32,993 nucleotides of DNA from Candidatus Binataceae bacterium. Its GTDB lineage: Bacteria > Desulfobacterota > Binatia > Binatales > Binataceae. The stretch covers positions 1 through 32,993 of the forward strand of contig JBJKQX010000417.1 of the NCBI GenBank assembly GCA_046704965.1, read 5' to 3'. The notes under the pieces were generated by a model. It was given only the letters and a program-made list of their open reading frames with translations. It had not been told where the DNA came from and did not search any database. Shown here piece after piece: positions 9,852-29,061 of this stretch; positions within the stretch are counted from its first letter, which is position 1; every line of letters starts with the position of its first letter. The position numbers and the translations under genes are program-made.

Positions 9852-10206
9852 ACACACTACGCTTTCACGCTGAGCTACGAGGGGTGAAGCAAAGCAGCTT
9901 GCCTACCGCAGCAACCGGAGAGACCGTTTTCGGCGCAAGCGGGCCGACAGACTTCAGCTCCGATCACGGCCCCGGCAGGGAGATTCCGGACAATCACGAA
10001 CGAGCAGCGGAACGCTCCGGCTTGGCCGAGATGATCATGCTTTTAATGTCTTCGCCGCTCACAAGCGGCCCTTTCGGTGTCGCCCTAAATGTCAAAATGA
10101 ACGCGGAACTGGACGCTGAAATCTTCGCCTTTCGGATACATCCCACGCCCTCCGTGACCGCGCCGTGGCTGCTGTACGGTCGATGCAGATTGTGAAGGCT
10201 GTCTTG

Positions 10207-11527: not shown

Positions 11528-11770
11528 ATGTCTGATCGCTGGATGTCCGTCGAGGAGATCGCCGGCTATCTGGGAGTGAGCAAAGACACGATCTACGGCT
11601 GGATAACCAAGAGGGACATGCCGGCCCACAAGGTCGGAAGGCTTTGGAAGTTCAAGTCGGACGAGGTCGATTCATGGGTGAGGGCCGGTAAAGCATCCGA
11701 CGAGGGCGGTGAGCATGCGGTGAGTGATGCAAAAGGTCGAGAAAAGCGCGCCACGAAGGGGAAGCAATGA
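11528..11770 (+). CDS. excisionase/MerR-type helix-turn-helix (HTH_17-like) DNA-binding protein
   Basis: WMSVEEIAGYLGVSKDTIYGWITKRDMPAHKVGRLWKFKSDEVDSWV is the typical excisionase-family HTH pattern. The ATG at 11528 follows GGAGAAAGG (11512-11520). The stop overlaps the dcm start (ATGA at 11767-11770). Confidence 0.75.
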   Translation: MSDRWMSVEEIAGYLGVSKDTIYGWITKRDMPAHKVGRLWKFKSDEVDSWVRAGKASDEGGEHAVSDAKGREKRATKGKQ

Positions 11771-12861: not shown

Positions 12862-13258
12862 AGCGAGCCTCCGAATGGCTCGAGTGCGGCAGAAGGGCAC
12901 CGACGCCGAACTTTCCTTACGTAAGGCGCTGCACGCCAGAGGGCTGCGCTATCGCTTGCACGTCCCGCTACTGACGAAGCCGCGTCGAGTCGCAGACATC
13001 GTTTTTTCGAGCGCCCGGGTCGCCATCTTCGTCGATGGTTGCTTCTGGCACGGTTGCCCGCAACACGCCTCCTGGCCGAAGAGCAACGCGCAATTCTGGC
13101 GCGACAAGATCGAAACCAACCGGGCTCGCGACGCGGACACCGATCAACGCCTCCGGGCTTCGGGTTGGCGGGTCGTCCGTGTTTGGTCTCACGAAAGCGC
13201 CGGTGATGCGGCCGAACGCATCGAAGACCTCGTTCGTGCCGGGGAGAGTGCGCAGTGA
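12833..13258 (+). CDS. vsr: very short patch repair endonuclease
   Basis: SLRMARVRQKGTDAEL...ADIVFSSARVAIFVDGCFWHGCP...FWRDKIETNRARD...GWRVVRVWSHE matches the Vsr pattern. The ATG at 12833 overlaps the dcm 3' end by 29 nt; the track ORF starts at 12731. Confidence 0.88.
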   Translation: MSRVSPSSHEASLRMARVRQKGTDAELSLRKALHARGLRYRLHVPLLTKPRRVADIVFSSARVAIFVDGCFWHGCPQHASWPKSNAQFWRDKIETNRARDADTDQRLRASGWRVVRVWSHESAGDAAERIEDLVRAGESAQ

Positions 13259-16200
13259 TCGTCAGGGGGGCTGGCAGCGCGGCCGCACAGATAGCGCATC
13301 ACACCATCCCCGAGCCCGGCCAGTTGGTGGAAGCTCGCCGGCGTCAATGGATTGTTTCTGAAGTGGACGACGGCTCGGTCGCCCCTGGTCTGCCCAAACG
13401 CCACCTCATTCGGTTGGCTTCGATCGACGAGGATGCCCTCGGCGAGGAAATCGAGGTTTTGTGGGAATTGGAACCCGGCGCTCATGTCATCGAGCGCGCC
13501 GGCCTGCCGCGTATCACGGGTTTGGACGATCCAGACACGCTGCAAGCGTTTCTCGACGCCGTCCAATGGGGAGCGGCCACCAACGCAGACAGAGCGTACT
13601 TGCAAGCTCCCTTCCGTAGTGGCGTCAGCATCGAGGATTTCCAGCTCGACCCGCTAGTGCGCGCGATCGACATGGCTCGCACGAGCCTGCTCATCGCCGA
13701 CGACGTCGGTCTCGGCAAGACGATCGAAGCCGGTCTCGTGGTCCAGGAGATGCTCCTCCGCCACCGTGCCCGTACAGCGCTGGTGTTGTGCCCAGCGTCG
13801 CTGCAAGAAAAGTGGCGCACGGAGATGCAAGAAAAATTCGGCCTTGATTTTCGGATCGTGGATACCGAGTTCGTCAAGCATCTGCGACGCGAGCGAGGGC
13901 TGCACGCCAACCCGTGGACGTCCTTCCCGCTCCTGATCACCTCAATGGATTGGGCGAAGCAGGGTGAAGGCCTGCGCCTGTTTCGTGATGCATTGCCGCC
14001 CTCGGTCACACATCCCCGCAAATTCGATCTCTTGGTGATCGACGAGGCCCACAACGTCGCGCCAACGGTCGGACACTATGCCGTCGAGAGCCTCAGGACG
14101 CGGCTGGTCCGCCTTCTCGCACCCCATTTCCAGCACAAGCTGTTCCTGACCGCCACGCCGCACGATGGCTACACCGAATCGTTCACCGCTCTGCTCGAAC
14201 TCCTCGACGATCAACGGTTCGCCAGAAACGTCCTGCCGAGCGAGCCCCAGCGCGCCCGGGTCATGGTGCGGCGGCTGAAGAGCGACCTCGTCGACGCGAA
14301 CGGCAATCGGCTCTATCCGGTACGGCGCCTCGAAGCCCTCGGCGTCAACTATGCCGAGGACGAGCGAGACATCCGTCATCTTCTCGGGGACTACATATCC
14401 AGCCGGGAGCGGGGGGAAAAAGGCGCACGAGCCGTCGACCGCTTCGTCCATCAATTGCTGCGCAAGCGCCTGTCGTCGTCACCCGCGGCGTTCGCGACCA
14501 CGCTGGAGCGGCATGTCGCGACCATCGAAGGGCGCACCGCGGCCGACCACGGCCAACGAAAGTTGGATGAGCGCATCCTCCGCCGGGCCATCTCGAAGGC
14601 GGAGGAAGACTACGCCGACGATGCCCAGCGCGAGATGGCGGAAGACGAGGCGATTGGCGAAGCCAGCAAGCACGTCCGCCCGCCTGACGAGCGAGAAAGG
14701 CTGATGCTCCAGCGTTTGCGATCCTGGGCTCAGCAAGCGTCACGCAAGGAGGACTCCAAGGCTCGCGCCATCCTGGAGTGGCTCGCCAAGCATCTCCAGG
14801 TCGATGGCCAGTGGACAGACGAGCGCGTCATACTCTTCACCGAATACCGGACGACACAGCAGTGGATGCACCAGATCCTTGCTGCCCACGGCTTCGGTGG
14901 CGACCGGCTGGCGTTGATCTATGGCGGGATGGATCACGACGAACGCGAAACCGTGAAGGCCGCGTTCCAGGCCAGCCCCAAGGAATCGCCAGTCAGAATC
15001 CTCCTGGCGACCGATGCCGCTTCGGAAGGCATCGACCTCCAAAACCACTGCCATCTGATGATCCACTTGGAGATCCCTTACAATCCCAACGTGATGGAGC
15101 AGCGGAACGGCCGCATCGACCGGCACGGTCAGCGCTCCGGCGAGGTGGTCATTTGGCACCCGGTCGACGACGAGGGAGACCACGGCGAGGACATTCTGCG
15201 TGCCCTGCGCAAGCTCGATGCCATGCGGGCCGACATGGGCAGCGTCAATCCGGTCATCGCCCCTCAGTTGCCGGACCTGATCGAGGGGCGCCGGCGCGAC
15301 CTGGATACCCGGCTCGCCGAAGCCCGCATGGAAAAGTCTCGCCGCTTCGTCCGAGCGGAGCGCGATCTCCGAGAACGCATCGCGAAGCTGCATGAACGTC
15401 TCGCCGAGACCAAACGAGAGCAAAATCTCGCGCCCGACCATATCGAAAGATCGGTGAGGACGGCTCTGCGCCTATCGGACAAACCGGACCTGGAGCCCGT
15501 TTCCCTTCCGGGGGCTCTCGATGGATCGGTCTTCAGGATGCCGGCGCTGTCGGGTTCATGGTCGCGATGTCTCGAAGGTCTCGAGCATCCCTATACGAAG
15601 AAGGTTCGACCGATCACCTTCGATCACGACGTGGCGAAGGGGCGCGACGACGTCGTCCTGGCGCATCTCAATCACCGCCTCGTTCAGATGAGTCTGCGCC
15701 TGCTCCGCGCCGAGATCTGGGCGCGCGACGACGTAAAGAAGATCCATCGCGTCACCGCCCGGTCGCTTCCCGACGGTCGCTTGGAAGCTCCGACCATCGT
15801 CGTCGTTTCTCGCTTGGTGATCACGGGCGGAAGCCACCATCGCCTGCACGAGGAACTCACCGAGGCCGGCGGCTATCTGCGCGACGCGGGATTCCGCCGC
15901 GAGGAGCGCGTCACAGAGTTGCGTCGGTGGCTACAGGAATCCAAACCAGCGGCGCTGCCGGACACGACCTTCGCGGCGCTGCGCACCCGCTTCGACAAGC
16001 AGCGCGACTCCGTCCTGGCTGCGGTCGAGGCGCGTTCCAAGGATCGCCTGCGCTTCCTGTCCAACTCGATCGACGCCCGCCGGGAAAAGGAGAGCGACGA
16101 CATCCGCCAGGTGCTAGACGATCTCGACAAGGCTCTACGGGCCGAACTCGTCGCCGACCGTGAGCCGCAACAGCTCTCGCTCTTCTCCGAAGACGAGCGC

Positions 16201-16377
16201 ACACAGCTGCGACGCGATCACGCCGCTCTGGAAGCACGCCTCGCCCGCATTCCGCTGGAGCGGGAGCAAGAGGTGCGCGCCATCGAGAACAGATACTCCA
16301 ATGTCCGGGATCACACCTTTCCCGTAGCCGTCGTCCTGCTCGTGCCCGCCTCGCTGTCGACAGAGCGGATAACATGA
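13255..16377 (+). CDS. drmD: SNF2-family helicase, DISARM class 1 DrmD
   Basis: DDVGLGKTIEAG (motif I), LLVIDEAHNV (II), LFLTATPHDG (III), LLATDAASEGIDLQ (V) and EQRNGRIDRHGQ (VI). The GTG start at 13255 overlaps the vsr stop (GTGA), with GGGGAGAG 6 nt upstream. Context: sits with drmMI/drmA/drmB/drmC. Confidence 0.85.
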   Translation: MIVRGAGSAAAQIAHHTIPEPGQLVEARRRQWIVSEVDDGSVAPGLPKRHLIRLASIDEDALGEEIEVLWELEPGAHVIERAGLPRITGLDDPDTLQAFLDAVQWGAATNADRAYLQAPFRSGVSIEDFQLDPLVRAIDMARTSLLIADDVGLGKTIEAGLVVQEMLLRHRARTALVLCPASLQEKWRTEMQEKFGLDFRIVDTEFVKHLRRERGLHANPWTSFPLLITSMDWAKQGEGLRLFRDALPPSVTHPRKFDLLVIDEAHNVAPTVGHYAVESLRTRLVRLLAPHFQHKLFLTATPHDGYTESFTALLELLDDQRFARNVLPSEPQRARVMVRRLKSDLVDANGNRLYPVRRLEALGVNYAEDERDIRHLLGDYISSRERGEKGARAVDRFVHQLLRKRLSSSPAAFATTLERHVATIEGRTAADHGQRKLDERILRRAISKAEEDYADDAQREMAEDEAIGEASKHVRPPDERERLMLQRLRSWAQQASRKEDSKARAILEWLAKHLQVDGQWTDERVILFTEYRTTQQWMHQILAAHGFGGDRLALIYGGMDHDERETVKAAFQASPKESPVRILLATDAASEGIDLQNHCHLMIHLEIPYNPNVMEQRNGRIDRHGQRSGEVVIWHPVDDEGDHGEDILRALRKLDAMRADMGSVNPVIAPQLPDLIEGRRRDLDTRLAEARMEKSRRFVRAERDLRERIAKLHERLAETKREQNLAPDHIERSVRTALRLSDKPDLEPVSLPGALDGSVFRMPALSGSWSRCLEGLEHPYTKKVRPITFDHDVAKGRDDVVLAHLNHRLVQMSLRLLRAEIWARDDVKKIHRVTARSLPDGRLEAPTIVVVSRLVITGGSHHRLHEELTEAGGYLRDAGFRREERVTELRRWLQESKPAALPDTTFAALRTRFDKQRDSVLAAVEARSKDRLRFLSNSIDARREKESDDIRQVLDDLDKALRAELVADREPQQLSLFSEDERTQLRRDHAALEARLARIPLEREQEVRAIENRYSNVRDHTFPVAVVLLVPASLSTERIT

Positions 16378-19300
16378 GCGCCAACCACGATTGGCTCAAC
16401 CTCATCGAGGTGTCGGGGCCGTTCCTCGCGGTGCCCGTGCTTCGGGAGGCGCTTCCCCAAGGCTTGGAAGCCCTCACCTCCGGCCGACCTCAACGGCTCC
16501 GCGCCGCCTACGACGAATGGCGTGACGCCGTCGATGCGGACGATCCCGATATGCCGGCGATACATTCGGCGTGGATCGACGAGGTTCTCCAAAGCGCCTT
16601 GGAGGTGGACGATCAGGTTTTGCGCCGGGCGGCGATATTGCCGGAGCGGCTGAAGGTGTCGCTGCCCGAGCACGGCGTCACGATCGCGCCTGACCTGGCG
16701 ATCGTCAATCCGACCCAGGGCGACGACCCGCTCCTGCTCGTCCAGCTCTATGATCCCGACACCGATCTCGACGCCACCCGGAACTACGACGGGCTGGCAA
16801 CGACTCCGGGCGACCGGATGGTGTCGGTGCTTCGCGCCGCCGGATGCCCGGTCGGTCTCGTGACCAACGGCGAGCGCTGGATGCTGGTTCATGCGCCGGC
16901 CGGCGCTGTCGCGAGCTTCGCCAGTTGGTATGCCCGCCTCTGGGGCCAGGAGCCCGAAACGCTCCGCGCCTTCGTCAGCCTGCTCGGGGTTCGTCGGTTC
17001 TTCGGCCCGGAAGCCGAAAGGCTACCGGCGTTGTTCGAACGATCGCTGAAGCACCAGGACGATGTGACCGACGCACTCGGCGAGCAGGTCCGCCGTGCGG
17101 TCGAAGTGCTGGTCCAGTCCCTCGACCGCGCCGATCAGGATCGCAACCGGGATCTCTTGCACGACGTCGATCCGAAGGAACTCTACGAGGCCGGACTGAC
17201 GGTCATGATGCGGCTCGTCTTCCTCCTCGCGGCGGAAGAACGCGGCCTGCTTCTCCTCGGCGATCCCAGATACGATTCGTTCTACGCGCTCTCCAGCCTG
17301 CGCATGCAGTTGCGCGCCGACTCCGAGGAGATTCTCGAACGTCGACGTTCGGCGTGGTCACGGCTGCTCGCGCTGTTTCGTGGCGTCTATGGCGGAATCG
17401 ATCATCCGGTGCTTCGGCTCCCGGCGATGGGCGGATCACTCTTCGATCCGGACCGCTACCCCTTCCTCGAAGGGCGCAAGAAAGGGACGAGTTGGCGGAG
17501 CGACCCGGCGGAACCCCTGCCGATCGACGATCGGACGGTTCTGCTCCTGCTTGAAGCGATCCAGACCTTCGAAGGGCGCACGCTGTCCTACCGGGCGCTC
17601 GACGTGGAGCAGATCGGCCACGTCTATGAAGGCCTACTCGAACGCACGGTCCAGCGCGTCGATGACGTGACACTCGAACTCGAAGGATCGGCCAAGGCCA
17701 AGAATGCGCGTGTCACATTGGGCGAGGTCGAGTCGGCGCACCTCGACGGCGCCGCGAGGATCGTCGAACTCCTGAAGGAACGGAGCGAGCGCTCTGAGCC
17801 TGCCATTCGCAACGCCATCGGGCGAGCGCCGGACGAACGCCTCGCGGCGCGCCTGCTCACCGTCTGCCGTGGCGACGTGGCGCTACGTGACCGCATCCTG
17901 CCCTATGCCGAACTCCTGCGGACGGACCCGTGGGGATACCCTCTGGTCCATCACGCGGGCGCCTTCGTCGTCGTCCTCGGCGCCGACCGGCGCGAGAGCG
18001 GAACGCATTACACGCCCAAGAGCCTGACCGAGAAAATCGTCGAAGAAACCCTGACGCCGATCGTTTTTCGTGGTCCGGCCGAAGGTGCGGCGCGCGAGGA
18101 TTGGAAGCTCAAAAGCGCCGACGAACTCCTCGACCTCAAGATCTGCGATCCTGCGATGGGATCAGGCGCGTTCCTCGTGCAGGCGTGCAGCTGGCTCGCC
18201 GATCGGCTGGTCGAGGCCTGGTCGGGCATAGAAGCAGCGGACGGCCGGATCGACGACGAAGGCCGCACTCGCACCGCAGATGACGCGGCCGGGTTCGAAC
18301 CACTGTCGCGCGACATCGAAGAACGCGCCATCCTCGGACGTCGCCTGATCGCCGAGCGCTGCCTCTACGGTGTCGACAAGAACCCGCTCGCGGTCGAACT
18401 CGCCAAGCTATCGCTGTGGTTGACCACGCTCGCCAAGGGACGGCCCTTCGGCTTTCTCGATCACAACCTGCGGAGCGGCGACAGCCTTCTCGGCATCCAT
18501 GATCTCGGCCAGCTCATCGAGCTGGATATGAAGCCGAAGGGTAAGGCGCAGCTTCGCCTTTTCGGCCGGACGATCCGGACGGCCGTCGACAAGGCCCTTG
18601 AACTCCGCAGCCAGCTTCGCTCGATCCCCATCCGCGACATCGGCGATGTCGAGGCAATGGCGGCACTCGACGCCCAATCACGCAATGAACTCGCGCTTCC
18701 GGAGCTGATCGCCGATGGCCTCGTCGGCATCGTCCTCTCCGAGGATCGTGCCGGTGAACGGGCGATGAGAACCACGACGCTGGCAACCATTGCCGATGCA
18801 GCCGCGAACGGCGAAGCAAACGCTCAGGGCCGCGCGGCGCGCGACGCGTTTACCGACCTCGCGAGAGATGCTCCTGATGGCGCCTCACGACGACCACTCC
18901 ACTGGCCACTCGAATTCCCAGAAGTCTTTTCGCGGGACAATGGTGGGTTTGATGCCTTCGTTGGCAATCCTCCATTCTTGGGGGGACAGCGGATCACTGG
19001 GGTGGCCGGTACGGCTTATCGCAATTGGCTCGTTGACCAAGTCGCTGAAGGTCGGCGGGGGTCAGCCGACCTCGTCGCGTACTTTTTCCTACGCGCTTAC
19101 TCGCTCTTGCGGGACGGGGGTGGTTTCGGACTACTCGCGGTCAATACTATCGCGGAGGGCGACACACGGCAGGTCGGGCTAGAAGCCATGGTCGGCGCGG
19201 GCGCTGTCATTCATGCGGCCTATCCGAACGAGCCTTGGCCTGGGAAGGCGGCGGTTGTCACCAGTCGTGTCCATATCCACAAAGGCAAGTGGAGTGGCGA

Positions 19301-19784
19301 ATGCTCGTTGCGCGGACGCCCCGTTGCATTCGTGTCAGCGTACCTTGCAGATCAAGAGGAGTGGAGTCCGAAAGGGCTGAAGGCTGCACAGAACATTGCT
19401 TTCATCGGTTCCTATGTGCTCGGAAAGGGCTTCGTACTTGCGCCCGAGGAAGCGCAGCGCATGCTAGATGCTGACCCGCGAAACGTCGATGTGATCTTTC
19501 CGTACCTTGACGGAGACGATCTCAAATCAGTTCCAGAGCAGCGGGCCACTCGATGGGTGATCAGTTTCTGGGATTGGCCCGAGGCGCGCGCGCAAGAATA
19601 CGAATTACCCTGGCAGCGGATCGAAGATCGGGTCAGACCGGAACGCCAGCGTCTCAACGAGCGAGGTGAGTTCGTTCTTCGGAAGCCTCTGCCCGAACGC
19701 TGGTGGCAATTCGGCGAAAAACGTCCGGGCCTCTATCATGCGATAGGTCGCGGTTACTACTTCGAACAGCATCCCGAAGATTGA
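16374..19784 (+). CDS. drmMI: N6-adenine DNA methyltransferase (Eco57I/type IIG-like), DISARM DrmMI, truncated by an in-frame TGA
   Basis: HYTPKSL, ICDPAMGSGAFLV (SAM motif I) and FVGNPPFLGG (NPPF motif IV). ATGA overlap with the drmD stop. The frame ends at TGA 19782-19784 and continues in the same frame afterwards (see next feature). Confidence 0.85.
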   Translation: MSANHDWLNLIEVSGPFLAVPVLREALPQGLEALTSGRPQRLRAAYDEWRDAVDADDPDMPAIHSAWIDEVLQSALEVDDQVLRRAAILPERLKVSLPEHGVTIAPDLAIVNPTQGDDPLLLVQLYDPDTDLDATRNYDGLATTPGDRMVSVLRAAGCPVGLVTNGERWMLVHAPAGAVASFASWYARLWGQEPETLRAFVSLLGVRRFFGPEAERLPALFERSLKHQDDVTDALGEQVRRAVEVLVQSLDRADQDRNRDLLHDVDPKELYEAGLTVMMRLVFLLAAEERGLLLLGDPRYDSFYALSSLRMQLRADSEEILERRRSAWSRLLALFRGVYGGIDHPVLRLPAMGGSLFDPDRYPFLEGRKKGTSWRSDPAEPLPIDDRTVLLLLEAIQTFEGRTLSYRALDVEQIGHVYEGLLERTVQRVDDVTLELEGSAKAKNARVTLGEVESAHLDGAARIVELLKERSERSEPAIRNAIGRAPDERLAARLLTVCRGDVALRDRILPYAELLRTDPWGYPLVHHAGAFVVVLGADRRESGTHYTPKSLTEKIVEETLTPIVFRGPAEGAAREDWKLKSADELLDLKICDPAMGSGAFLVQACSWLADRLVEAWSGIEAADGRIDDEGRTRTADDAAGFEPLSRDIEERAILGRRLIAERCLYGVDKNPLAVELAKLSLWLTTLAKGRPFGFLDHNLRSGDSLLGIHDLGQLIELDMKPKGKAQLRLFGRTIRTAVDKALELRSQLRSIPIRDIGDVEAMAALDAQSRNELALPELIADGLVGIVLSEDRAGERAMRTTTLATIADAAANGEANAQGRAARDAFTDLARDAPDGASRRPLHWPLEFPEVFSRDNGGFDAFVGNPPFLGGQRITGVAGTAYRNWLVDQVAEGRRGSADLVAYFFLRAYSLLRDGGGFGLLAVNTIAEGDTRQVGLEAMVGAGAVIHAAYPNEPWPGKAAVVTSRVHIHKGKWSGECSLRGRPVAFVSAYLADQEEWSPKGLKAAQNIAFIGSYVLGKGFVLAPEEAQRMLDADPRNVDVIFPYLDGDDLKSVPEQRATRWVISFWDWPEARAQEYELPWQRIEDRVRPERQRLNERGEFVLRKPLPERWWQFGEKRPGLYHAIGRGYYFEQHPED

Positions 19785-19817
19785 AGCGCGCAGACCCGCC
19801 CACTTGAGCATATTCTC

Positions 19818-20507
19818 GTGGCGGGGCGTGTCGGAAAGTATTTCAATCCGTCAGTAGTACAAAACGACGTCATTTTTCACGAGAAATGTGTCGTTTTCGC
19901 CGTGACGGAGGCATTTGCCTACGCGGCAATCTTCAATTCATCCCCGGTCGATGCGTGGGTTTGGAAACAGTCTTCCCGGATGAAGCTTGATCTGAATTTC
20001 TCGCCGTCGGACGCGGTCGAGACTTTTCCCTTTTTGGAAGCCTCCGACGTCATTCGCTTCGACCAGCTGGGTCGTGAGTACCTGCAATCGCGACGAGAGA
20101 TAATGACTGATCCGGCCAACCAGATCGGTCTCACGAAGCTCTACAACCGTTTCCACGACGCCGCTGACGTTGAAGCGCGCATCGTGCGCCTTCGGGAGAT
20201 GCACCGCGAGATCGACGCCGCCGTCATGCGTGCCTACGGGTGGGACGATCTCGACCTCGGGCATGGCTATCATGAGCAACCGAACCTCGCGGAGAACGAC
20301 CGCGTTCGCTTCACGATCTCCGATGTTGCGCGTGCGGAGGTGTTGCGTCGATTTACCGAGTTGAACCGACGGCGGTACCAGGACGAGGTCGAAGCGGGAC
20401 TGCACAAGTCAGCCAAGAAAACAGCATCGAGGAAGGCGCAGGTCAACCAAGACACCGGCGGTTTCTTCGATGCCGATACTATTGAGACGGAGAGCGTCGA
20501 TGACTGA
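19818..20507 (+). CDS. drmMI: C-terminal portion of DrmMI, separated from the main ORF by one in-frame stop (same reading frame)
   Basis: 16374 and 19818 are in the same frame. Only one stop (TGA 19782-19784) lies between ...YYFEQHPED and SAQTRPLEHILVAGRVGKYFNPSVV... The sequence has no independent SD. It resembles the usual C-terminal region of large type IIG/PglX-like methyltransferases. Confidence 0.7.
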   Translation: MAGRVGKYFNPSVVQNDVIFHEKCVVFAVTEAFAYAAIFNSSPVDAWVWKQSSRMKLDLNFSPSDAVETFPFLEASDVIRFDQLGREYLQSRREIMTDPANQIGLTKLYNRFHDAADVEARIVRLREMHREIDAAVMRAYGWDDLDLGHGYHEQPNLAENDRVRFTISDVARAEVLRRFTELNRRRYQDEVEAGLHKSAKKTASRKAQVNQDTGGFFDADTIETESVDD

Positions 20508-22449
20508 CACATACAAGATGACGGTCGACCTCAACGTACTCGACCACCTCGGCATCAACCTCTACAGCAACATCGCCGCCGTCCTGACCGAAGCCGTCGC
20601 CAACGCTTGGGATGCGGATGCCGAGAAGGTGGACATTCGGATCGACCCAGACGGCAAGTGGATCGAGATCACCGATGATGGCATCGGCATGTCGGTCGTC
20701 GACATGAACGACAAGTATCTGCGCGTCGGCTACCGGCGTCGTGAAGAGACGAACGGTCGCGTGACGCCCAAGGGACGGCCGGTGATGGGCAGGAAGGGGT
20801 TGGGCAAACTCTCGCTCTTCTCGATCGCCGACACCATTGAGGTGCATTCGGCCAAGGACGGCGGCGCGCATGGGCTGCGCATGACGGTCGCCGGTATCCA
20901 TGACTCCGTCCGGGACCAAAAGCCCTTCTACAGTCCCGAACCGCTGCCGGCCGGAGACATCACCGTCGCGAAGGGGACGAAGATCATCCTCAAGGACGTC
21001 AAGCGCCAGCGTCTCGGGCCGGGAGCCGTGGCGCTCCGCAAGCGCCTGGCGAGGCGGTTCTCGGTCGTGGGGGAAGCCCACGGTTTCAAGGTCGAGATCG
21101 ACGGCCAGCCCATCACCGCTGCCGACCGTGGCGACCTCGCCATGGTCCAGTTCCTTTGGACGTTCGGGATCGAAGAGCCCGATCTGACGGCCTCTTTCCA
21201 GCTCAAGGAAAAGGAGTCTCTCTCCGACCGCTTCGATGCCTGGGACGCGACATGGCGCGTGAAGGGCTGGATCGGCACCGCCAGAAAGCCGAAGGATCTG
21301 GAAAGCACCGAAGCCGGCAACATGAACGGCATCGTCGTGTTCGCTCGCGGGCGGCTATTCCATGAGAACATCCTCGACAAGCTGAACGACGCCAGGATCT
21401 ACACCAAATACCTCACGGGACAGATCGAGGCCGATTTCCTGGACATCGACGACAAGCCCGACATCGCGACCAGCGATCGACAGCGCGTGCAGGAGGACGA
21501 CGAGCGATACCAGCAACTGCTCGCGTTCCTGCGGTCGCGGCTCACTCAGGTCGAGAGCCGCTGGAACGAGTGGCGGCGGAAGCACGAAATCGAGAAGGCG
21601 AAGGAAACATCGCCCGCCCTCGCGGAATGGCTCGATGGACTGCCGGAAGGCTTCCGTAAGAGCGCCGAGGAACTGATCGCAAAACTCAGCGCTCTGCCAA
21701 TCGAAGAGGACGACGATCGCAAGGTTCTGTATCGCCACGGCATCCTCGCATTCGAACGCATGAAGCTGCGGGGATCGACCGACGAATTCATCGCGAGTAT
21801 CGCCAGCGTGGACAAGCTGCTCACGCTGCTCGCCGATCGGGATTCTCTCGAAGCATCGCTGTATCGCGACATCGTGCGGTCTCGGCTCGGCGCCATCCAG
21901 GAGTTTCAGAAGATCGTCGATGAGGACGCGAAGGAGAAGGTCCTCCAGAAATATCTGTTCGATCACCTCTGGTTGCTGGACCCCGCCTGGGAGCGCGCTT
22001 CTGGCAGCGAACTCATGGAAAAGCGCCTCGTGTCCGAAGGCGTCATCGTCGAGGACTTCAACGAGAAAGAGAAACTCGGTCGGGTCGACATCGCTTATCG
22101 CACCTACGCCGGAAAGCACATCATCGTCGAACTGAAAAAGGCCGGTCGGGTGATGAAGCTCCTCGAATTGCAGGAGCAAGGCCAACGCTACGTCGATACG
22201 CTGCGAAAGATCCTGTTACAGCAAGGCGATTCCTCACCGAACATCGAGGTCGTGTTCGTTCTGGGCAAATCGATCGAGGAGGAGAAGGCGAACCCCGATC
22301 GACTCAAATCGTCCATGGCGGCGATCTCACCCGGTAGCCGGATCGCCCACTACGACACACTCATCAGGGGCGCCCAGGAAGCCTACGAGCAATATCTCAA
22401 GGCCAGCAAGGAGCTGGATCGTCTCGAAAAGTTGGTGAACCAGATATGA
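20500..22449 (+). CDS. GHKL (HATPase_c_3, MORC-like) ATPase with a coiled-coil middle and a C-terminal PD-(D/E)xK nuclease-like domain (DUF4263/Shedu-like)
   Basis: Bergerat-fold motifs: LTEAVANAWDADA (N box), ITDDGIGM (G1) and GRKGLGKLSLFS (G2). C-terminus: HLWLLDPAWE...GRVDIAY...HIIVELKKAG...QGQRYV (D...ExK...QxxY). The ATG at 20500 overlaps the drmMI stop (ATGACTGA), and the stop overlaps the drmA start (ATGA). Confidence 0.8.
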   Translation: MTDTYKMTVDLNVLDHLGINLYSNIAAVLTEAVANAWDADAEKVDIRIDPDGKWIEITDDGIGMSVVDMNDKYLRVGYRRREETNGRVTPKGRPVMGRKGLGKLSLFSIADTIEVHSAKDGGAHGLRMTVAGIHDSVRDQKPFYSPEPLPAGDITVAKGTKIILKDVKRQRLGPGAVALRKRLARRFSVVGEAHGFKVEIDGQPITAADRGDLAMVQFLWTFGIEEPDLTASFQLKEKESLSDRFDAWDATWRVKGWIGTARKPKDLESTEAGNMNGIVVFARGRLFHENILDKLNDARIYTKYLTGQIEADFLDIDDKPDIATSDRQRVQEDDERYQQLLAFLRSRLTQVESRWNEWRRKHEIEKAKETSPALAEWLDGLPEGFRKSAEELIAKLSALPIEEDDDRKVLYRHGILAFERMKLRGSTDEFIASIASVDKLLTLLADRDSLEASLYRDIVRSRLGAIQEFQKIVDEDAKEKVLQKYLFDHLWLLDPAWERASGSELMEKRLVSEGVIVEDFNEKEKLGRVDIAYRTYAGKHIIVELKKAGRVMKLLELQEQGQRYVDTLRKILLQQGDSSPNIEVVFVLGKSIEEEKANPDRLKSSMAAISPGSRIAHYDTLIRGAQEAYEQYLKASKELDRLEKLVNQI

Positions 22450-25400
22450 GCGAATCCAGCCCTCCGGATAACGGCACGACAGCACAGATGCCGGCTCAAG
22501 CGGCTTGGATGGCCGCTGATGCGACCGTTCGCGCAGGGCAGCACGATTTCGGCTTCTCGTGCGCGGGAGGACCCAACCTGTTCGCGAGCATCGCGGCGGG
22601 TGACTGGCTGCTTCTCTTCGATCTCACCCAGTCGGTCACGCGAGTCGGACGACTCCTTCGCGTTCGATCGACGGAAGCCGAAACCTACTTCTATTTCGAC
22701 AAGCTCCAAACCGTCACTTCGCCGACACCGTTGAGCGGATTGGGTCTCACTGCACCCGCCGGGCTGATCAACCGCCTCCCTTGGGATGATTTCGTGCGCG
22801 CAGCGAAGGCTGTCGGGATTTCCGACATCGATGCCGTGCCGCTCATCCAAAACGTCGCCTATGTGCGCGATCTGCTCGAAGTTGCCGTCCGCGATGATCT
22901 TCTCGGCCCTGCCGGCGGGCCGCATGAGCTGATCAAGGATATGAGCGTTCGCGACCGCTACCTGGTCGGGAAGCTCGCACCTCGACGGCCGGGTGACGGC
23001 GAGACGGTCCTCGTCGAGCCTGCGGCGGCCGATGAGATCGGCGACATCGAGGATGAACGAGCCGCGCCCATTCACGAGCCGGGCGCCGAATTCGCGAGCG
23101 CTTCCGGCCGTGTGGAGCCCGAGGACGATGCCCTCGACGAGATCGACACGACGAACAATCAATCGCTTGTGCCCTCCAGCCTGGGGCTCACCTTCTGCGT
23201 CGCGCAGGGCGTGGACTCGCTCGCGGTCGAGGTTCGCTGGGGGCGTTACGAGCGCGTCCCGAGTGACGAGCACGACGTCGTCAAGACCCGGAGGAATCGG
23301 GCGACCGGGAAAGAGGAAGAGACGAAGGTCAAGGTGTGGCGACGCATCCCGTGCGGCGGGGTCGTTCCCCTGATTCTGAGCGACGGACCGATAAGGCCCT
23401 CGACGCCGGACCGAGACCAGCCTGACGTCAGGCTGCAAGGCACCGTCCGGACGAACGACCAGGGCGAGCGCCTCGTCACCCTATTCCTGGTGAACGGCCA
23501 GTTGGAGCCCGATGACAACAAGGACCGCGCCTGGCTTTTCCAGCCGGAGATTTCCGTGGCCGCGCTCGACGGCGCTGTGGACAAGGCGATCTTCAGGCGA
23601 CGCCCATCCAATGAAATCGTCGTCGACGATCCGGAACGCGATCGCCTAGCGCTGATCTATCGCAATCGGCTGGAGTTCGCGGTCGGCCACGGCGTGTCGG
23701 TCCACGCCGACACGATGCTGGAAGATTCCGGGAAGGCTTGGCGGGTCCGCACCGAGATCATTCCGCGCTACGAGATCGCCGTGACGGAGACGCCGGGCCT
23801 CGACCCCGGCGATCGCCCGGCGATGCGCCGGATGGTCGACGAAGGTTGGCTAGACATGAGCCGCCTCGCGGAATTGGAGCCGCGGACGCTGCGTAATGCC
23901 CTGTCATGCCTGGTCGACGACTACGCCGTATGGATCGAGGAGCAACGTGCGCGGCTGAAAAGCGAGATCACCGGCTTCGATCAGCCGGGGCGAGACGTGA
24001 TCGCCCGCTGCGAGGAAACTCTGCGCCGTCTTCGCGACGGGATCAGCACACTCTTTTCTGATGACGCGGCCCTATCGGCATTTCGCTTCGCCAACAGGTC
24101 CATGGCACTACAGCGCGTCCGGAGCCTCTATGCCCTCAAGTGCAGGCGGGGCGAGGCAGCGGGCATCGCGCAGCTCGACATCCCAAGGAATAGATCCTGG
24201 CGCCCCTTCCAATTGGCCTTCCTATTGTTGTCGGTGCCTTCGCTCGCCGACCCGGCGCATCCCGATCGAACGAAACCCGTGGAGGCCTTCGCCGATCTGC
24301 TGTGGTTCCCAACGGGCGGCGGTAAGACAGAAGCCTATCTGGGTGTGGCTGCCTTCGCGATGGCGATGCGCCGGCTGAAGAACGACCTCGGTGGGCTCGA
24401 CGCCTCGCGCGGCGTCGCCGTAATCATGCGATACACGCTGCGCCTGTTGACGCTCCAGCAATTCCAGCGCGCGGCCGCGCTGTTGTGCGCAATGGAGGTC
24501 ATCCGTCGCGCCGACGAGAAGACCTGGGGCAAGGAGCCCTTCTCACTGGGACTGTGGGTCGGCAACAGGGTGACGCCGGGCCGAACCGAAGACGCTCACC
24601 AGGCGATCGAAGCGTTGCGCAATGGTGATCGGAATCGTGCCGGCATCGCGTCACCGGCGCAATTGACGAGCTGCCCATGGTGCGGCTCGGAGATCTCCGC
24701 TGGGCGCGACATCGAGGTCGACAGGGTTCTCGGCCGGACTCTCATTCACTGCGGGGACAAGCTCGGCACCTGCGAATTCTCGCGAGCCGGCTCCAGCGGG
24801 CTCGCCCACCCCGGATTGCCGGTGAAGGTGGTCGATGAGGAAATCTACCATCGTCCTCCCACGATGATGATCGCGACCGTCGACAAGTTCGCCATGATGG
24901 CCTGGCGGCCGGAAGTTCGAACCCTCTTCGGCCGCGTCGATGAAGAATGCGAACGCCATGGCTTGCTCTGGCCGGGGCACGATTGCGGCACGGGTCATCG
25001 CGCGCGCGGCGCCCATCCCGCGGCGAAGGTGAAGCCGGTGCGATCCGCTCTCCGCCCCCCCGATCTCATCATCCAAGACGAGTTCCACCTCATCAGCGGT
25101 CCCCTCGGCACCATGGTCGGCCTCTATGAGAGCGCCGTCGATGAGCTGAGCACCTGGCCCCTCGGCGATACGAAGGTCCGACCAAAGGTCGTGGCATCCA
25201 CCGCGACCGTCCGGCGCGCCGAAGATCAAGTGCGCAACGTGTTCATGCGGCGCATTTCGGTCTTTCCGCCCTCCGGTCTCGACGTCGAGGATAACTTCTT
25301 CTCGGTCCAGCGGCCCATCGAAGAGAAGCCCGGCCGCCGCTACATGGGCATATGCGCGCCCGGCAGCTCTCGCCCCGCGGTGCTTATCCGAACGTACACG

Positions 25401-26462
25401 GCCTTCCTGACCGCGGCGCAGGCGCTCTTCGATCGTTTCGGTCCGGTCGCCGACCCCTACATGACGCTGGTCGGCTATTTCAATTCGCTGCGCGAATTGG
25501 GCGGAATGAAGCGCCTCGCCGAAGACGACGTCCAGACGCGATCCTTCCGCGTCAGCATGAGCCTCGTCGATCGGCCGGGCTTATCGCAGCGACGAGTCGA
25601 CGACGTCCGCGAACTGACGTCCCGTGTCTCCAGTCACGACATTCCGCGCTATCTCGACCAACTCGAAATCCCCTTCAATGGGACGTTCGACCCCGCGACG
25701 CGGAAATGGCTCGAGAACCGGGCTCCCGGCGACCCACGCCCGATCGACGTCGTGCTGGCCACCAACATGCTTTCGGTTGGCGTCGATGTGAACCGCCTCG
25801 GCGTGATGGTCGTCAACGGCCAGCCGAAGGGAACGGCCGAGTATATCCAGGCGACCAGCCGCGTCGGCCGCACGCCGCCGGGCTTGGTCGCCACCGTCCT
25901 CACCTGGGCGCGTCCGCGCGATCTCTCACACTATGAGACGTTCGAGCACTATCACGCGACCTTCTATCAGCACGTCGAAGCTCAATCCGTGACGCCATTC
26001 TCGCCGCGGGCATTGGACCGTGGTCTCACGGGCGCGATGCTGTCGATCATGCGAAACGCCTATGATCCCTTCGCGCCAAATACGGGAGCGGGCGCGATGA
26101 ACAGTCCCAGTCGACCGGAGATGTTAACGACGATCGGTGTAGTTGCCGAGCGGACGTGGGAAGTCACCGAGGATTCCGCAAAGAAATCGCTGACCGAACA
26201 GGAATTGAAGCAACGAGCAGATGATTGGGCCAAAGAGGCGGGCATCGGTGGCCGCACGCTCGTTTATCAGAAGTATGGCGCAGGCCCGACGGCGTATCCT
26301 CTTTTGGAAGCTCCAGGCGTGAAGCCGTGGACGGATTGGACCGTCCCGATGTCGATGCGTGAGGTCGAGCCCGGCGTGAGGCTGGTGATGGAGGATTCTC
26401 GCTCGACGAGCGACCCCATCTGGCGAGCCCGAGTCACTCCAATGGACGGGAGTGACGCATGA
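22446..26462 (+). CDS. drmA: DISARM DrmA, large superfamily-2 helicase
   Basis: WFPTGGGKTEAYLG (motif I), LIIQDEFHLISGPLGT (II), VASTATV (III), VLATNMLSVGVDVNRL (V) and YIQATSRVGR (VI). It is followed by a DUF1998 protein and a PLD protein. Confidence 0.88.
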   Translation: MSESSPPDNGTTAQMPAQAAWMAADATVRAGQHDFGFSCAGGPNLFASIAAGDWLLLFDLTQSVTRVGRLLRVRSTEAETYFYFDKLQTVTSPTPLSGLGLTAPAGLINRLPWDDFVRAAKAVGISDIDAVPLIQNVAYVRDLLEVAVRDDLLGPAGGPHELIKDMSVRDRYLVGKLAPRRPGDGETVLVEPAAADEIGDIEDERAAPIHEPGAEFASASGRVEPEDDALDEIDTTNNQSLVPSSLGLTFCVAQGVDSLAVEVRWGRYERVPSDEHDVVKTRRNRATGKEEETKVKVWRRIPCGGVVPLILSDGPIRPSTPDRDQPDVRLQGTVRTNDQGERLVTLFLVNGQLEPDDNKDRAWLFQPEISVAALDGAVDKAIFRRRPSNEIVVDDPERDRLALIYRNRLEFAVGHGVSVHADTMLEDSGKAWRVRTEIIPRYEIAVTETPGLDPGDRPAMRRMVDEGWLDMSRLAELEPRTLRNALSCLVDDYAVWIEEQRARLKSEITGFDQPGRDVIARCEETLRRLRDGISTLFSDDAALSAFRFANRSMALQRVRSLYALKCRRGEAAGIAQLDIPRNRSWRPFQLAFLLLSVPSLADPAHPDRTKPVEAFADLLWFPTGGGKTEAYLGVAAFAMAMRRLKNDLGGLDASRGVAVIMRYTLRLLTLQQFQRAAALLCAMEVIRRADEKTWGKEPFSLGLWVGNRVTPGRTEDAHQAIEALRNGDRNRAGIASPAQLTSCPWCGSEISAGRDIEVDRVLGRTLIHCGDKLGTCEFSRAGSSGLAHPGLPVKVVDEEIYHRPPTMMIATVDKFAMMAWRPEVRTLFGRVDEECERHGLLWPGHDCGTGHRARGAHPAAKVKPVRSALRPPDLIIQDEFHLISGPLGTMVGLYESAVDELSTWPLGDTKVRPKVVASTATVRRAEDQVRNVFMRRISVFPPSGLDVEDNFFSVQRPIEEKPGRRYMGICAPGSSRPAVLIRTYTAFLTAAQALFDRFGPVADPYMTLVGYFNSLRELGGMKRLAEDDVQTRSFRVSMSLVDRPGLSQRRVDDVRELTSRVSSHDIPRYLDQLEIPFNGTFDPATRKWLENRAPGDPRPIDVVLATNMLSVGVDVNRLGVMVVNGQPKGTAEYIQATSRVGRTPPGLVATVLTWARPRDLSHYETFEHYHATFYQHVEAQSVTPFSPRALDRGLTGAMLSIMRNAYDPFAPNTGAGAMNSPSRPEMLTTIGVVAERTWEVTEDSAKKSLTEQELKQRADDWAKEAGIGGRTLVYQKYGAGPTAYPLLEAPGVKPWTDWTVPMSMREVEPGVRLVMEDSRSTSDPIWRARVTPMDGSDA

Positions 26463-28300
26463 GCAAGACACCCGTAGGCGAAATCCGGCCGAGCCAGCTC
26501 CTGTGGACCTACGGTCCAGGCGCGCTGGTCGATCTGCCCAATTTATCGGTCGTCACGATGGGGATCGACCATTGGGAAAAGGATAGATGCCAGCCCATCC
26601 AAGAGGCACGCCTGTTGGCGAACGTCCGCAGCGTTCTCGGGCCTCAAGTGGAATCGCTGCGTATGCCCCCGATCGGCGAGCCTGATGTCGTCGACCCGTT
26701 TTCTCCCGCAGCCCTGATCGGCGTTCCAGTGAAGCCGTTCCCAAGGTGGTTGCGTTGCGTGAAATGCGGGCTCCTTTCGCCGTTCGATGCCGGCTTATTC
26801 AAGCTGAAGGAAAACAGATACCGTCCGGAGCTGACCCGTTTCGTCCATGAGGGCTGCCGGGGTTCGAACAATGATCAGCGAGCTCGTGACGCCGACGCCG
26901 TCCCGGCGCGCTTCCTGACGGCTTGTCGTGCCGGACATCTGGACGATTTCCCTTGGCACTGGTTCGTTCATGCTGGCCCCTCTGAATGTCGCGGCACCCT
27001 ACGGTTTTTTGAAAGCGGTGCGTCGCTTCAAACCGAGAACCTCTGGGTCAAATGCGACGCCTGCGGCGCATCGAAGAACATGGCCCAGGCTTTCGGCCAG
27101 GCCGGCAGAGACAATTTGCCCGGGTGTCGCGGGAGGCATCCTCACATCGATCGTTTTGACGAAGATTGTGTCGAAGAGCCGCGGGCGATTCTGCTCGGTG
27201 CGACAAACGGGTGGTTCCCGGTCACGTTGTCGGTCCTCGCCATCCCCCAGACGGGTAGTCCCTTGGCGCAACTCGTCGGGGACGGCTGGACCTTCTTCGA
27301 GGACGTTTCGTCGGCCGGCGAAGTCGGTTTCGTCGTCAAAACGCTGAAGAAGACGGCGCAGCTCCCTGGCATCGAGCAATTCACCAGCGACCAGATTTGG
27401 TCCGCCATCGAAGCCCACAGGACGGGCGGCATAGATGTCGGCCAAAGCGACCTCAAAGAGCCGGAATGGCAGGTTCTGACGGCGGACGATCCGCCGACCG
27501 ACTACCCGCATTTCATGAGCAAGAAGGTCGGGGTTCCGAAAGGCTTCGAAGCGGCCATCACACGCGTCTTACTGTTGGAACGATTGCGCGAAGTGAATGC
27601 TCTGCTCGGCTTCACGCGCGTCGAGTCCCCCGATGAGGGATCGGGCGACGATGCCGCGCCGCGTGCTCCGCTGGGCCGTTCGGCGCCCGATTGGGTGCCG
27701 GCGACACAGGTTCATGGCGAGGGCATCTTTGTTCGCTTTGATGCCGACGCCCTGAAAGCATGGGCCGACCTGGATGCAGTCAAAGACGTCGATGCTCGCT
27801 TACGCACTGGGCATCGTGGGTGGCGCCAAAAACGGAATCTCGATCCGAGACAGGGCTATCCGGGCGCGCGATACGTATTGCTGCACACCCTGGCACACAT
27901 GCTGATCAGAGAGCTGGCTCTCGAATGCGGATACAATGCCGCCAGTATTCGTGAACGGATCTACGCGGAAGTCGACGAGGGGAAAAATCAGGCCGGATTC
28001 CTCATCTACACGGCGGCAGCCGATTCCGATGGAACTCTCGGAGGATTGGTCGAACTAGGTAAACCCGAAAATCTCGGGCGGCTGCTGCGCCAGGCCCTGG
28101 ATCGCGCGCACGTCTGCGCTTCCGATCCGCTGTGCTCCGAGCACGACCCCAGCAAAGATCAATCGCTACACGGAGCGGCTTGTCATGCTTGTTCCTTCGT
28201 GTCGGAAACGTCTTGCGAGCGAGGCAATCGGCATCTCGACCGCGCGTTGGTGGTCCCCACGCTCGAAAACCAAACCGCCGCATTTTTCCGGAACTCGTGA
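26459..28300 (+). CDS. drmB: DISARM DrmB, DUF1998 (MrfA-type Zn-binding) domain protein
   Basis: N-terminal RPSQLLWTYGPGALVDLP and a C-terminal Cys cluster, CASDPLCSEHDP...HGAACHACSFVSETSCERGNRHLDR. ATGA overlap with the drmA stop. Confidence 0.85.
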   Translation: MSKTPVGEIRPSQLLWTYGPGALVDLPNLSVVTMGIDHWEKDRCQPIQEARLLANVRSVLGPQVESLRMPPIGEPDVVDPFSPAALIGVPVKPFPRWLRCVKCGLLSPFDAGLFKLKENRYRPELTRFVHEGCRGSNNDQRARDADAVPARFLTACRAGHLDDFPWHWFVHAGPSECRGTLRFFESGASLQTENLWVKCDACGASKNMAQAFGQAGRDNLPGCRGRHPHIDRFDEDCVEEPRAILLGATNGWFPVTLSVLAIPQTGSPLAQLVGDGWTFFEDVSSAGEVGFVVKTLKKTAQLPGIEQFTSDQIWSAIEAHRTGGIDVGQSDLKEPEWQVLTADDPPTDYPHFMSKKVGVPKGFEAAITRVLLLERLREVNALLGFTRVESPDEGSGDDAAPRAPLGRSAPDWVPATQVHGEGIFVRFDADALKAWADLDAVKDVDARLRTGHRGWRQKRNLDPRQGYPGARYVLLHTLAHMLIRELALECGYNAASIRERIYAEVDEGKNQAGFLIYTAAADSDGTLGGLVELGKPENLGRLLRQALDRAHVCASDPLCSEHDPSKDQSLHGAACHACSFVSETSCERGNRHLDRALVVPTLENQTAAFFRNS

Positions 28301-29061
28301 TGGGATCGCTCTTGGATGCCGTCGCGGAGTTGGCCGCGCTACTTTCGCCGTCGAAGATCGAAGCGATCGCGTCGCGGCTGCGAGGCGCGTCCTCATCGGC
28401 TCGGGAACAAGACCTTCAGAAAATCGTTGGTACGCCGGTTGCCCGAGCGGCCTTGGAATCGTTCGTGACGGCGTGGCAGGATACGGCGTTGCCCGGAGAC
28501 GTCGTGGCCGGAATGCTGTTGGCCGCGGCTCATACTCGGCAGCGGTTGCAGGGAGATTGTAACGTCGAACTCGTCTGGACGGGGCCGACGACACCGTTCG
28601 TCGCGACTAGACGGACCGAACAGGTGCTCCTGGACCTCATTCAGCACGCGACGCGAGAACTCTTCATCGTAAGCTTTGTCGCCTACGATGTTCCTTCGGT
28701 CATAATCGCGATCAACGCGGCCACTGAACGAGGAGTCGACACTCGCATTCTTGTCGAAGCCTCCGTGACCCAAGGTGGGAGCCTGCTCGTCGATCCGGTT
28801 TCGACGATGAGAAACGCTGTTCCTTCAGCCAAATTGTATATCTGGACCGATCGCCCACAGCCGTTCACCAATGGTCGGGTTCACGCGAAGGTGGCCGTTG
28901 CTGACGGCAACGCTGCATTCTTGACGAGCGCCAACCTTACTGGCCACGCGCTCGAAAAGAACATGGAGGCAGGGGTTTTACTCACCGGCGGTGACGTTCC
29001 CTCCAATCTTCGGGCTCACCTGCGCGCACTGATTGAAACGAAAGTGATCCGATCGGTCTGA
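28300..29061 (+). CDS. drmC: DISARM DrmC, phospholipase-D-family (single HKD) nuclease
   Basis: HKD motif HAKVAVADGNAAFLTSANLT. The ATG at 28300 shares one nucleotide with the drmB stop (TGATG). I treat the longer track ORF from 28132 as an out-of-frame overlap artefact. Confidence 0.85.
   Translation: MGSLLDAVAELAALLSPSKIEAIASRLRGASSSAREQDLQKIVGTPVARAALESFVTAWQDTALPGDVVAGMLLAAAHTRQRLQGDCNVELVWTGPTTPFVATRRTEQVLLDLIQHATRELFIVSFVAYDVPSVIIAINAATERGVDTRILVEASVTQGGSLLVDPVSTMRNAVPSAKLYIWTDRPQPFTNGRVHAKVAVADGNAAFLTSANLTGHALEKNMEAGVLLTGGDVPSNLRAHLRALIETKVIRSV

Follow-up and report, generated by a model that had tools for sequence, protein, structure and literature searches.

A BbrUII/HgiDII-family GHKL restriction enzyme gene in a cargo slot of a class 1 DISARM operon

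A GHKL ATPase-nuclease gene between drmMI and drmA

Contig JBJKQX010000417.1 of a Candidatus Binataceae bacterium (assembly GCA_046704965.1) was analysed over its whole 32,993 nt (hereinafter the window). It carries an operon of class 1 DISARM (a restriction-modification-associated defence island system), and the subject of this study is a gene at 20500–22449 on the + strand (hereinafter designated R) that is inserted between drmMI and drmA of that operon. The operon consists of nine co-directional, mostly overlapping genes in the order HTH_17, dcm, vsr, drmD, drmMI, R, drmA, drmB and drmC. R extends from an ATG at 20500 to a TGA at 22447–22449 and encodes 649 amino acids (aa), with the sequence GGAGAG located 6–11 nt 5′ of the start codon. 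A longer in-frame reading from an ATG at 20470 is also available; close homologues are 649 aa long and start with MTDTYKM. The first 8 nt of R are shared with the end of drmMI (stop codon TGA at 20505–20507), and its stop codon overlaps the drmA ATG at 22446 in a 4-nt ATGA. A first-pass annotation made from the sequence alone had given both overlaps correctly and had argued from them that the gene is not a loose neighbour, in agreement with its tight packing in the operon, although the upstream open reading frame at 19818–20507 proves to be only the C-terminal 229-aa piece of drmMI. Orthologues of R at the equivalent operon position are 96% identical in Bradyrhizobium and 93% identical in Roseomonas.

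Judged by profile, the R protein is a full-length member of the BbrUII/HgiDII restriction-enzyme family. The NCBIfam equivalog model NF050001 ("BbrUII/HgiDII family restriction enzyme") matches with an E-value of 2e-259 and 862.6 bits against a cutoff of 550, R residues 5–649 aligning with profile positions 1–659 of 659, and the REBASE-derived PADLOC model REase_II (PDLC03419) matches at 1.5e-114. Close homologues carry the public names "ATP-binding protein" or "BbrUII/HgiDII family restriction enzyme", and the family comprises 678 clusters at 50% identity with E-values of 1e-30 or better, almost all of them listed at about 650 aa. This named family had escaped the first-pass annotation, as had a 5-methylcytosine (5mC) methylase gene and a vsr gene at 11767–13258.

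The N-terminal part of R, residues 1–330 (20500–21489, + strand), is a GHKL ATPase plus S5-like transducer module, as indicated by Pfam HATPase_c_3, Foldseek and invariant residues. HATPase_c_3 covers residues 25–128 at E=1.4e-15, far above chance, which bears out the GHKL ATPase proposed in the first pass. Two sets served to judge invariance, one of 69 aligned, diverse relatives and one of 89 sequences from fetched loci. In both sets, residues E31, N35, D38, D59, G61, G63 and G97–G102 of the GHKL/Bergerat fold and R327 of the transducer are invariant, and so are E507, D530, E544, K546, Q560 and Y564 in the C-terminal domain. An AlphaFold model of the whole protein, with a predicted local distance difference test (pLDDT) score of 81, is composed of the GHKL and transducer module (mostly above 85), helices at 335–500 and an alpha/beta C-terminal domain. 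The all-helical linker, residues about 335–500 (21502–21999, + strand), was assigned by DSSP on this AF2 model as helices 335–370, 372–397, 404–444 and 448–488, where confidence is lower (pLDDT 50–77).

In a Foldseek search with the full-length model, the N-terminal 420–460 residues or so resemble TRAP1/Hsp90 and MORC2 (E about 1e-11 to 1e-14) and all matches are confined to the GHKL and transducer part, so the C-terminal domain was modelled separately. That domain, residues about 501–649 (22000–22446, + strand), is a predicted SduA_C-like PD-(D/E)xK nuclease with E507, D530, E544-x-K546 and Q560xxxY564. For the separate model (pLDDT 88.9), Foldseek places the Bacillus cereus Shedu nuclease 8ti9 first among the PDB matches, at a weak E-value of 0.034 and a TM (template modelling) score of 0.40, followed by further PD-(D/E)xK proteins. 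A PDB sequence search with the C-terminal profile gave no meaningful match (best ALIX, E=0.22).

The first-pass annotation had likened this C-terminus to DUF4263/SduA_C, and here the profile scores call for some restraint. The window protein reaches 14.5 bits with Pfam SduA_C (PF14082), below the gathering score of 27 (E=0.04), and PADLOC SduA matches residues 528–628 weakly, at 3.8e-4. Among the C-termini of 34 family members, 24 match SduA_C (best 8e-7), 11 match NucS_C and 9 match PDDEXK_4. A Shedu-like PD-(D/E)xK view of the domain is therefore reasonable, although the protein's own score is sub-threshold. The PD-(D/E)xK motifs I–IV (E, D, ExK and Q), by which Shedu nucleases are recognised, are conserved in all 89 R-family sequences. 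Overall, the earlier outline of a GHKL ATPase, a helical middle and a Shedu-like nuclease is borne out, SduA_C being the nearest Pfam and fold relative, and each peptide on which it had been based (EAVANAWDA, DDGIGM, GRKGLGKLS, HLWLLDPAWE, GRVDIAY, IIVELKK, QGQRYV and IEVVFVLGKS) is present in the translation.

The BbrUII/HgiDII family is associated with a linked C5-cytosine methyltransferase, and the operon of R contains one, though 7.6 kb upstream of R, where dcm and vsr stand ahead of drmD and drmMI. The M gene dcm (11767–12861, + strand) encodes Dcm, a C5-cytosine DNA methyltransferase that goes under the name DrmMII in class 1 DISARM (Pfam DNA_methylase, 8.6e-53; PADLOC DrmMII PDLC02651, 6e-93). 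The adjacent vsr (12833–13258, + strand) encodes a Vsr very-short-patch repair endonuclease (Pfam Vsr, 5.3e-17; PADLOC Vsr) that is 94% identical to its Bradyrhizobium orthologue. Its start is uncertain: the frame is also open from an ATG at 12731, and the start at 12833 agrees with the 141-aa length of that orthologue.

R, Dcm and the drmMI-drmA junction in other genomes

To place R among its relatives, we mapped the window proteins onto 80 R-anchored loci, one genome per species, and 10 further loci obtained by exact look-up. Of the 60 loci without DISARM genes, 53 (88%) have a homologue of the window Dcm (48–59% identity) no more than 500 nt from R, directly upstream and on the same strand in 48 of those 53, and Vsr lies within 1.5 kb of R in 21 of the 60. 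Dcm and R, with or without Vsr, form a canonical M-R(-V) cassette in these loci.

About 20 species from several phyla carry instead the split order Dcm-[Vsr]-DrmD-DrmMI-[extra genes]-R-DrmA-DrmB-DrmC seen in the window. They include Bradyrhizobium, Roseomonas, Aromatoleum, Thauera, Pandoraea, Marinobacter, Caldimonas and Competibacter as well as Gemmatimonadetes and Bacteriovoracaceae genomes. In a neighbour-joining tree, the R genes of this order fall in one clade, at an identity of about 65% or above, among whose members five simple cassettes are scattered; these five may be escapes from DISARM or poorly resolved basal branches, and the tree fits both. Other arrangements are drmMI-drmABC-R-Vsr (L016), drmABC-Vsr-R (L039), a divergent one (L036) and a further order beside drmABC (L038). 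One locus (L121) holds two paralogues of the GHKL enzyme, one of 47% identity between drmMI and drmA and one of 41% identity in a Dcm/Vsr cassette just 3′ of drmC. A tblastn search of plasmid records yielded only distant relatives (at most 42% identity, annotated 'ATP-binding protein') and no composite locus.

The distance matrices of R and Dcm correlate with r=0.51 over 67 loci (Mantel permutation p=0.001) and with r=0.82 in composite loci, where R also correlates with DrmA, DrmD and DrmB at r of about 0.72, compared with r=0.95 between DrmA and DrmD. Dcm is present in all 12 DISARM loci in which R is intact and the 5′ region can be seen, upstream of drmD in 11 and downstream of drmC in one (L028); seven DISARM loci carry Dcm without an intact R. 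R never occurs without Dcm in these DISARM loci but Dcm occurs without R, an asymmetry expected of a restriction enzyme and its protecting methylase. From these patterns we infer that Dcm is the cognate methylase of R.

The drmMI-drmA junction was then read in a sample chosen independently of R, namely 80 metagenome loci selected by DrmA similarity (61–91% identity). Merging backbones with DrmA at least 95% identical left 55 classifiable clusters, six of which hold more than one cargo type, so that the counts sum to 62. The interval contains an intact R gene in 11 clusters and R remnants in three. A 474-aa GHKL ATPase with a Methyltransf_35 protein occupies it in 17 clusters, and a 626-aa GHKL protein with an SpbK/TIR-like C-terminus in seven. 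It is empty in eight, and holds a KAP NTPase alone in four, PDC-S39 alone in three and retron III-A alone in two. Seven clusters account for one case each of OLD, a methyl-directed REase, a NERD/UvrD helicase, p595 plus DUF262, a second SNF2 with a 542-aa protein, p274 and a Methyltransf_35 remnant. One cluster of at least 95% DrmA identity holds five different cargos, indicating that cargo turnover is fast relative to backbone divergence. In this DrmA clade, the junction is a fast-turnover cargo hotspot. DrmC is kept whether the slot holds cargo or not, and about 38 of the 55 slots are taken up by the three types of GHKL module, with zero co-occurrence, a count in which the shared ancestry of loci is not corrected for.

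Several of the slot contents deserve a brief description. The R remnants comprise residues 53–157 in L091 (about 9400–10000), residues 423–649 in L125 (8902–9969) and, after an internal deletion, residues 2–83 and 465–649 in L137 (about 8560–9966), and all three loci still carry Dcm. L125 and L123, the latter with an intact R, have DrmA at least 95% identical. The commonest cargo is a 474-aa HATPase_c_3 GHKL ATPase followed by a 331-aa Methyltransf_35 (PF20553) protein, as at L127:1829–4238 and L092:7480–9894. Neither member of the pair has a PADLOC model, PF20553 is unmentioned in the literature searched, and the two may constitute an undescribed defence pair. The 626-aa GHKL-TIR protein, found for instance at L130:8104–9984, L147:3031–4932 and L112:8120–10000, is paraMORC4-like: its C-terminus resembles PADLOC spbK (2.7e-15) and its GHKL and transducer half is 28–30% identical to the window enzyme. 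A second SNF2 helicase of about 1045 aa, together with a 542-aa protein lacking a family match, recurs as an insert of two genes that separates the GHKL gene from drmA (L005/L006, L023, L136, L161, L164 and L167).

The remaining operon genes and the surrounding island

The class 1 backbone gene drmD (13255–16377, + strand) encodes a SNF2 helicase (PADLOC DrmD PDLC02621, E=0; Pfam SNF2-rel_dom and Helicase_C). Downstream of R follow drmA (22446–26462, + strand), for a YprA-family SF2 helicase (PADLOC DrmA PDLC02567, E=0), drmB (26459–28300, + strand), for a DUF1998/MZB protein (PADLOC DrmB, 1e-78; Pfam MZB, 1.2e-11), and drmC (28300–29061, + strand), for a PLD nuclease (PADLOC DrmC PDLC02585, 2.8e-104; Pfam PLDc_2). 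The first operon gene (11510–11770, + strand) encodes a small HTH_17-type DNA-binding protein (PADLOC mad1, 8.6e-15) and overlaps the dcm start by 4 nt; its Bradyrhizobium counterpart is called HTH_17. This gene precedes Dcm in DISARM loci with or without R and outside DISARM adjoins Dcm in a single locus (L048, 41% identity); its product is possibly an operon regulator. A scan of the operon for promoters and terminators, ill-suited to the promoters of this organism, gave nothing above chance.

The N6-adenine methylase gene drmMI (16374–20507, + strand; PADLOC DrmMI PDLC02643) is interrupted. An in-frame TGA at 19782–19784 cuts it into pieces of 1136 and 229 aa, of which the first (16374–19784) matches positions 9–1130 of PDLC02643 and the second (19818–20507), in the same frame, positions 1140–1336. 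Where the window has this TGA, a Trp codon (TGG) is found in Roseomonas (L011) and in Bradyrhizobium (L001), and the Bradyrhizobium DrmMI is intact at 1369 aa. The TGA is either a nonsense mutation or a sequencing error, so DrmMI of this operon may have lost its adenine methylase activity. The C-terminal piece (19818–20507) is 44% identical to Bradyrhizobium, compared with 86% for the remainder, and 78–80% identical to Roseomonas, and it has a sub-threshold Pfam MmeI_TRD match; the pattern suggests that the target-recognition region has been swapped between otherwise near-identical operons.

The region is a defence island that also contains a HipBA module, a dCTP-deaminase-type protein, a fusion of TIR, APAZ and short prokaryotic Argonaute (pAgo), and a NOV_C/PDC-S36 gene. 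At the island edge, 1757–3587 on the − strand, lie a HipA kinase toxin gene (HipA_C and Couple_hipA) and an overlapping HTH_3 antitoxin-like gene. The dCTP-deaminase-type defence protein (4618–6315; PADLOC dCTPase, 1.6e-155) overlaps the next gene (6312–9851), which encodes TIR, APAZ-like PNTD domains and short pAgo in a single 1179-aa polypeptide, a fused SPARTA-like architecture. Directly 3′ of drmC, a NOV_C (DUF3883) protein is encoded at 29132–29965, with a full-length match (3.3e-123) to PDC-S36, a PADLOC candidate; this gene was found in none of the related loci examined.

A probable second restriction layer travelling with DISARM

Taken together, R is probably the restriction subunit of an HgiDII/BbrUII-type, methylation-controlled restriction-modification (R-M) module that travels with DISARM as a second layer. 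It is an exchangeable module in a cargo slot and not an obligate or core DISARM subunit, because the cargo of the slot varies, including between backbones with DrmA at least 95% identical. In the proposed mechanism, Dcm would place 5mC on the host DNA at a short palindrome, which by the family name may be a TCGA-core hexamer such as GTCGAC, and Vsr would repair the T:G mismatches that arise from 5mC deamination. The R enzyme would dimerise through its GHKL domains on ATP binding, as MutL, MORC and Hsp90 do; its transducer and helical arms would clamp DNA and position two PD-(D/E)xK domains, and the paired domains would cut unmethylated sites. R would be co-transcribed and co-transferred with DISARM, which would function without it, and would share the Dcm mark that DISARM itself would use as DrmMII.

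Several observations weigh against this interpretation. The 7.6 kb between M and R, with drmD and drmMI in between, is unusual for a type II pair, and R is translationally coupled to drmMI and drmA and co-varies with DrmA, DrmD and DrmB in composite loci. Even with other cargo in the slot, R is nearly always the immediate upstream neighbour of drmA, which hints at something beyond passive nesting. Dcm, Vsr and the HTH_17 gene remain at the 5′ end of DISARM loci without R, and Dcm could therefore be a part of DISARM. The window shows no shortage of GTCGAC, with 22 sites where 14.3 are expected, a count that says little either way.

The translational coupling and the place beside drmA lend some weight to the notion, which we consider unlikely, that R is a plug-in DISARM effector or matchmaker acting physically with DrmD or DrmAB, loaded for example at helicase-engaged DNA. 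R would then supply cleavage not given by the dispensable PLD nuclease DrmC, with the GHKL-TIR protein and the 474-aa GHKL plus Methyltransf_35 pair as alternative effectors at the same docking site. The overlaps of R with drmMI and drmA, the composite order kept in about 20 species of several phyla and the other associations with drmABC (L016, L036, L038 and L039) would all fit, as would the zero co-occurrence of the three GHKL types, uncorrected for ancestry, and the tendency of the GHKL gene to adjoin drmA with other cargo placed distally. An association of MORC and paraMORC proteins with SF2/SNF2 helicases, Dcm and Vsr was noted in 2008 (PMC2292703), and the DISARM nuclease is acknowledged to be an open question (PMC9142583). 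However, the slot is also found empty or with unrelated stand-alone systems (retron III-A, OLD, KAP NTPase, PDC-S39 and a methyl-directed REase), cargo differs and R has decayed to remnants between close backbones, DrmC retention is independent of cargo, and elsewhere the R family is a simple Dcm-linked cassette without DISARM. The DISARM of Serratia is described as functioning with six genes, R not among them, and the co-variation of R with the backbone (r=0.72) falls short of that between DrmA and DrmD (r=0.95). The stricter proposal of the first-pass annotation, a sixth DISARM subunit, does not fit as it was put, on the same grounds: intact R occupies only about 20% of the clusters, in the midst of varied or absent cargo, swaps at DrmA identity of at least 95% and remnants; its co-inheritance by the Mantel test is looser; and neither the PADLOC definition nor the Serratia system includes R. 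A lack of enrichment in DISARM loci, which the same annotation had named as telling against a subunit, does not apply cleanly: one R clade is strongly DISARM-associated. It is doubtful, in our estimate, that in this class 1 DISARM lineage the position directly upstream of drmA is a dedicated docking slot for interchangeable GHKL effectors (with PD-(D/E)xK, with TIR or with Methyltransf_35) that cooperate physically with DrmD or DrmAB.

The other possibility raised in the first pass, a single-gene Shedu-type defence nested in the operon, would make R a methylation-independent system like VcSduA, in which the GHKL domain senses an infection cue and unleashes the nuclease and Dcm is unrelated. 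R shares the VcSduA architecture (PMC12137116) and matches Shedu type I-D, the nearest Pfam and fold neighbour of its C-terminal domain is SduA_C, and stand-alone paraMORC3 genes exist (PMC2292703). We regard this as improbable given that Dcm adjoins R in 88% of the non-DISARM loci and accompanies it in 12 of 12 DISARM loci with intact R, that the NCBIfam equivalog is one of characterised restriction enzymes and that SduA_C reaches 14.5 bits where 27 are needed. That R is a decaying or non-functional passenger in an operon inactivated by the nonsense codon in drmMI seems the least credible of all: the premature TGA and the remnants in L091, L125 and L137 would be in keeping with decay, but the R reading frame is full length with its catalytic and near-invariant residues intact, and its orthologues from loci with an unbroken drmMI share 96% and 93% identity with it.

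Relation to known systems

R is in itself an ordinary gene, with a named family and a published architecture (paraMORC3, Shedu I-D). Three features were absent from the literature searched: that M and R are split inside class 1 DISARM, that the drmMI-drmA junction behaves as a cargo slot, and that GHKL modules dominate this junction to the exclusion of one another. The last is a testable lead on the DISARM effector question, and the slot could be mined for new defence genes such as the 474-aa GHKL and Methyltransf_35 pair. In class 1 DISARM, DrmMII is of one methylase family with the partners of HgiDII-type enzymes and is often accompanied by Vsr and in some loci by the matching GHKL nuclease; DISARM phenotypes on unmethylated DrmMII sites therefore warrant a check for a GHKL enzyme. 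If the docking-slot view were true, the dispensability of DrmC would be explained and the missing effector of DISARM supplied, and class 1 'DrmMII' would be a methylase captured from an R-M cassette of the HgiDII type.

The closest characterised relatives are R.HgiDII and R.BbrUII, with which R shares the full-length family, the N-terminal GHKL domain and a C5-cytosine methylase partner of the M.HgiDII/M.BbrUII type. R.HgiDII was described with an N-terminal GHKL domain and an unassigned C-terminal domain (Orlowski and Bujnicki 2008, PMC2441816), and M.HgiDII and M.BbrUII are 5mC methylases, GTCGAC being given as the M.HgiDII site (PMC5867850). The C-terminus left unassigned in 2008 is placed here as SduA_C-like PD-(D/E)xK. 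In contrast to those pairs, M and R are here separated by drmD and drmMI, and R is wedged between drmMI and drmA.

R also has the layout of paraMORC3, which was described as GHKL and S5 followed by a C-terminal restriction endonuclease (RE) fold with E-D-ExK, encoded in R-M-type operons with Dcm, Vsr and SF2/SNF2 helicases, with some stand-alone genes (Iyer, Abhiman and Aravind 2008, PMC2292703). Compared by that published description, both the layout, including the E-D-ExK residues, and the Dcm/Vsr/helicase context are shared; the paper predates DISARM, and the drmMI-drmA position is not in it. We considered whether its 'distinct SFII helicase' (DThhQXuRhFG) might be DrmA, DrmB or DrmD and rejected this, since the motif is missing from all three, so that the SFII-helicase operon type of 2008 is not DISARM.

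Shedu type 1D architectures include GHKL (HATPase_c_3) with an Hsp90/MORC-like middle domain (Gu et al.), and VcSduA of the Vibrio cholerae WASA lineage is a validated stand-alone defence abolished by E27A in its GHKL domain or K557A in its nuclease (PMC12137116). R resembles these proteins in its GHKL ATPase, Hsp90/MORC-like middle and DUF4263-type PD-(D/E)xK nuclease, and its E31 and K546 are placed similarly to the catalytic E27 and K557 of VcSduA. VcSduA, however, is stand-alone and methylase-independent, whereas the R family is methylase-linked and the window protein is sub-threshold for SduA_C.

The class 1 DISARM of Serratia sp. SCBI, described as a system of six genes, corresponds to the window operon in drmD-drmMI-drmA-drmB-drmC and an extra 5mC methylase. 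Its DrmMII methylates the TCGA-core motif MTCGAK, reminiscent of GTCGAC. By its description it has no GHKL enzyme and Vsr is unmentioned, unlike the window operon. The PADLOC definition of class 1 DISARM lists only DrmA, DrmB, DrmC, DrmD and DrmMI, and a GHKL gene is unmentioned in the DISARM literature searched, consistent with the earlier statement that the defined gene sets exclude a GHKL ATPase. A defence gene inside the operon of another methylation-based system has likewise been described for PrrC in EcoprrI and for Shedu genes within BREX. The difference from both is that the gene embedded here itself encodes a restriction enzyme, one that would share its methylase with the host operon or borrow it from there.

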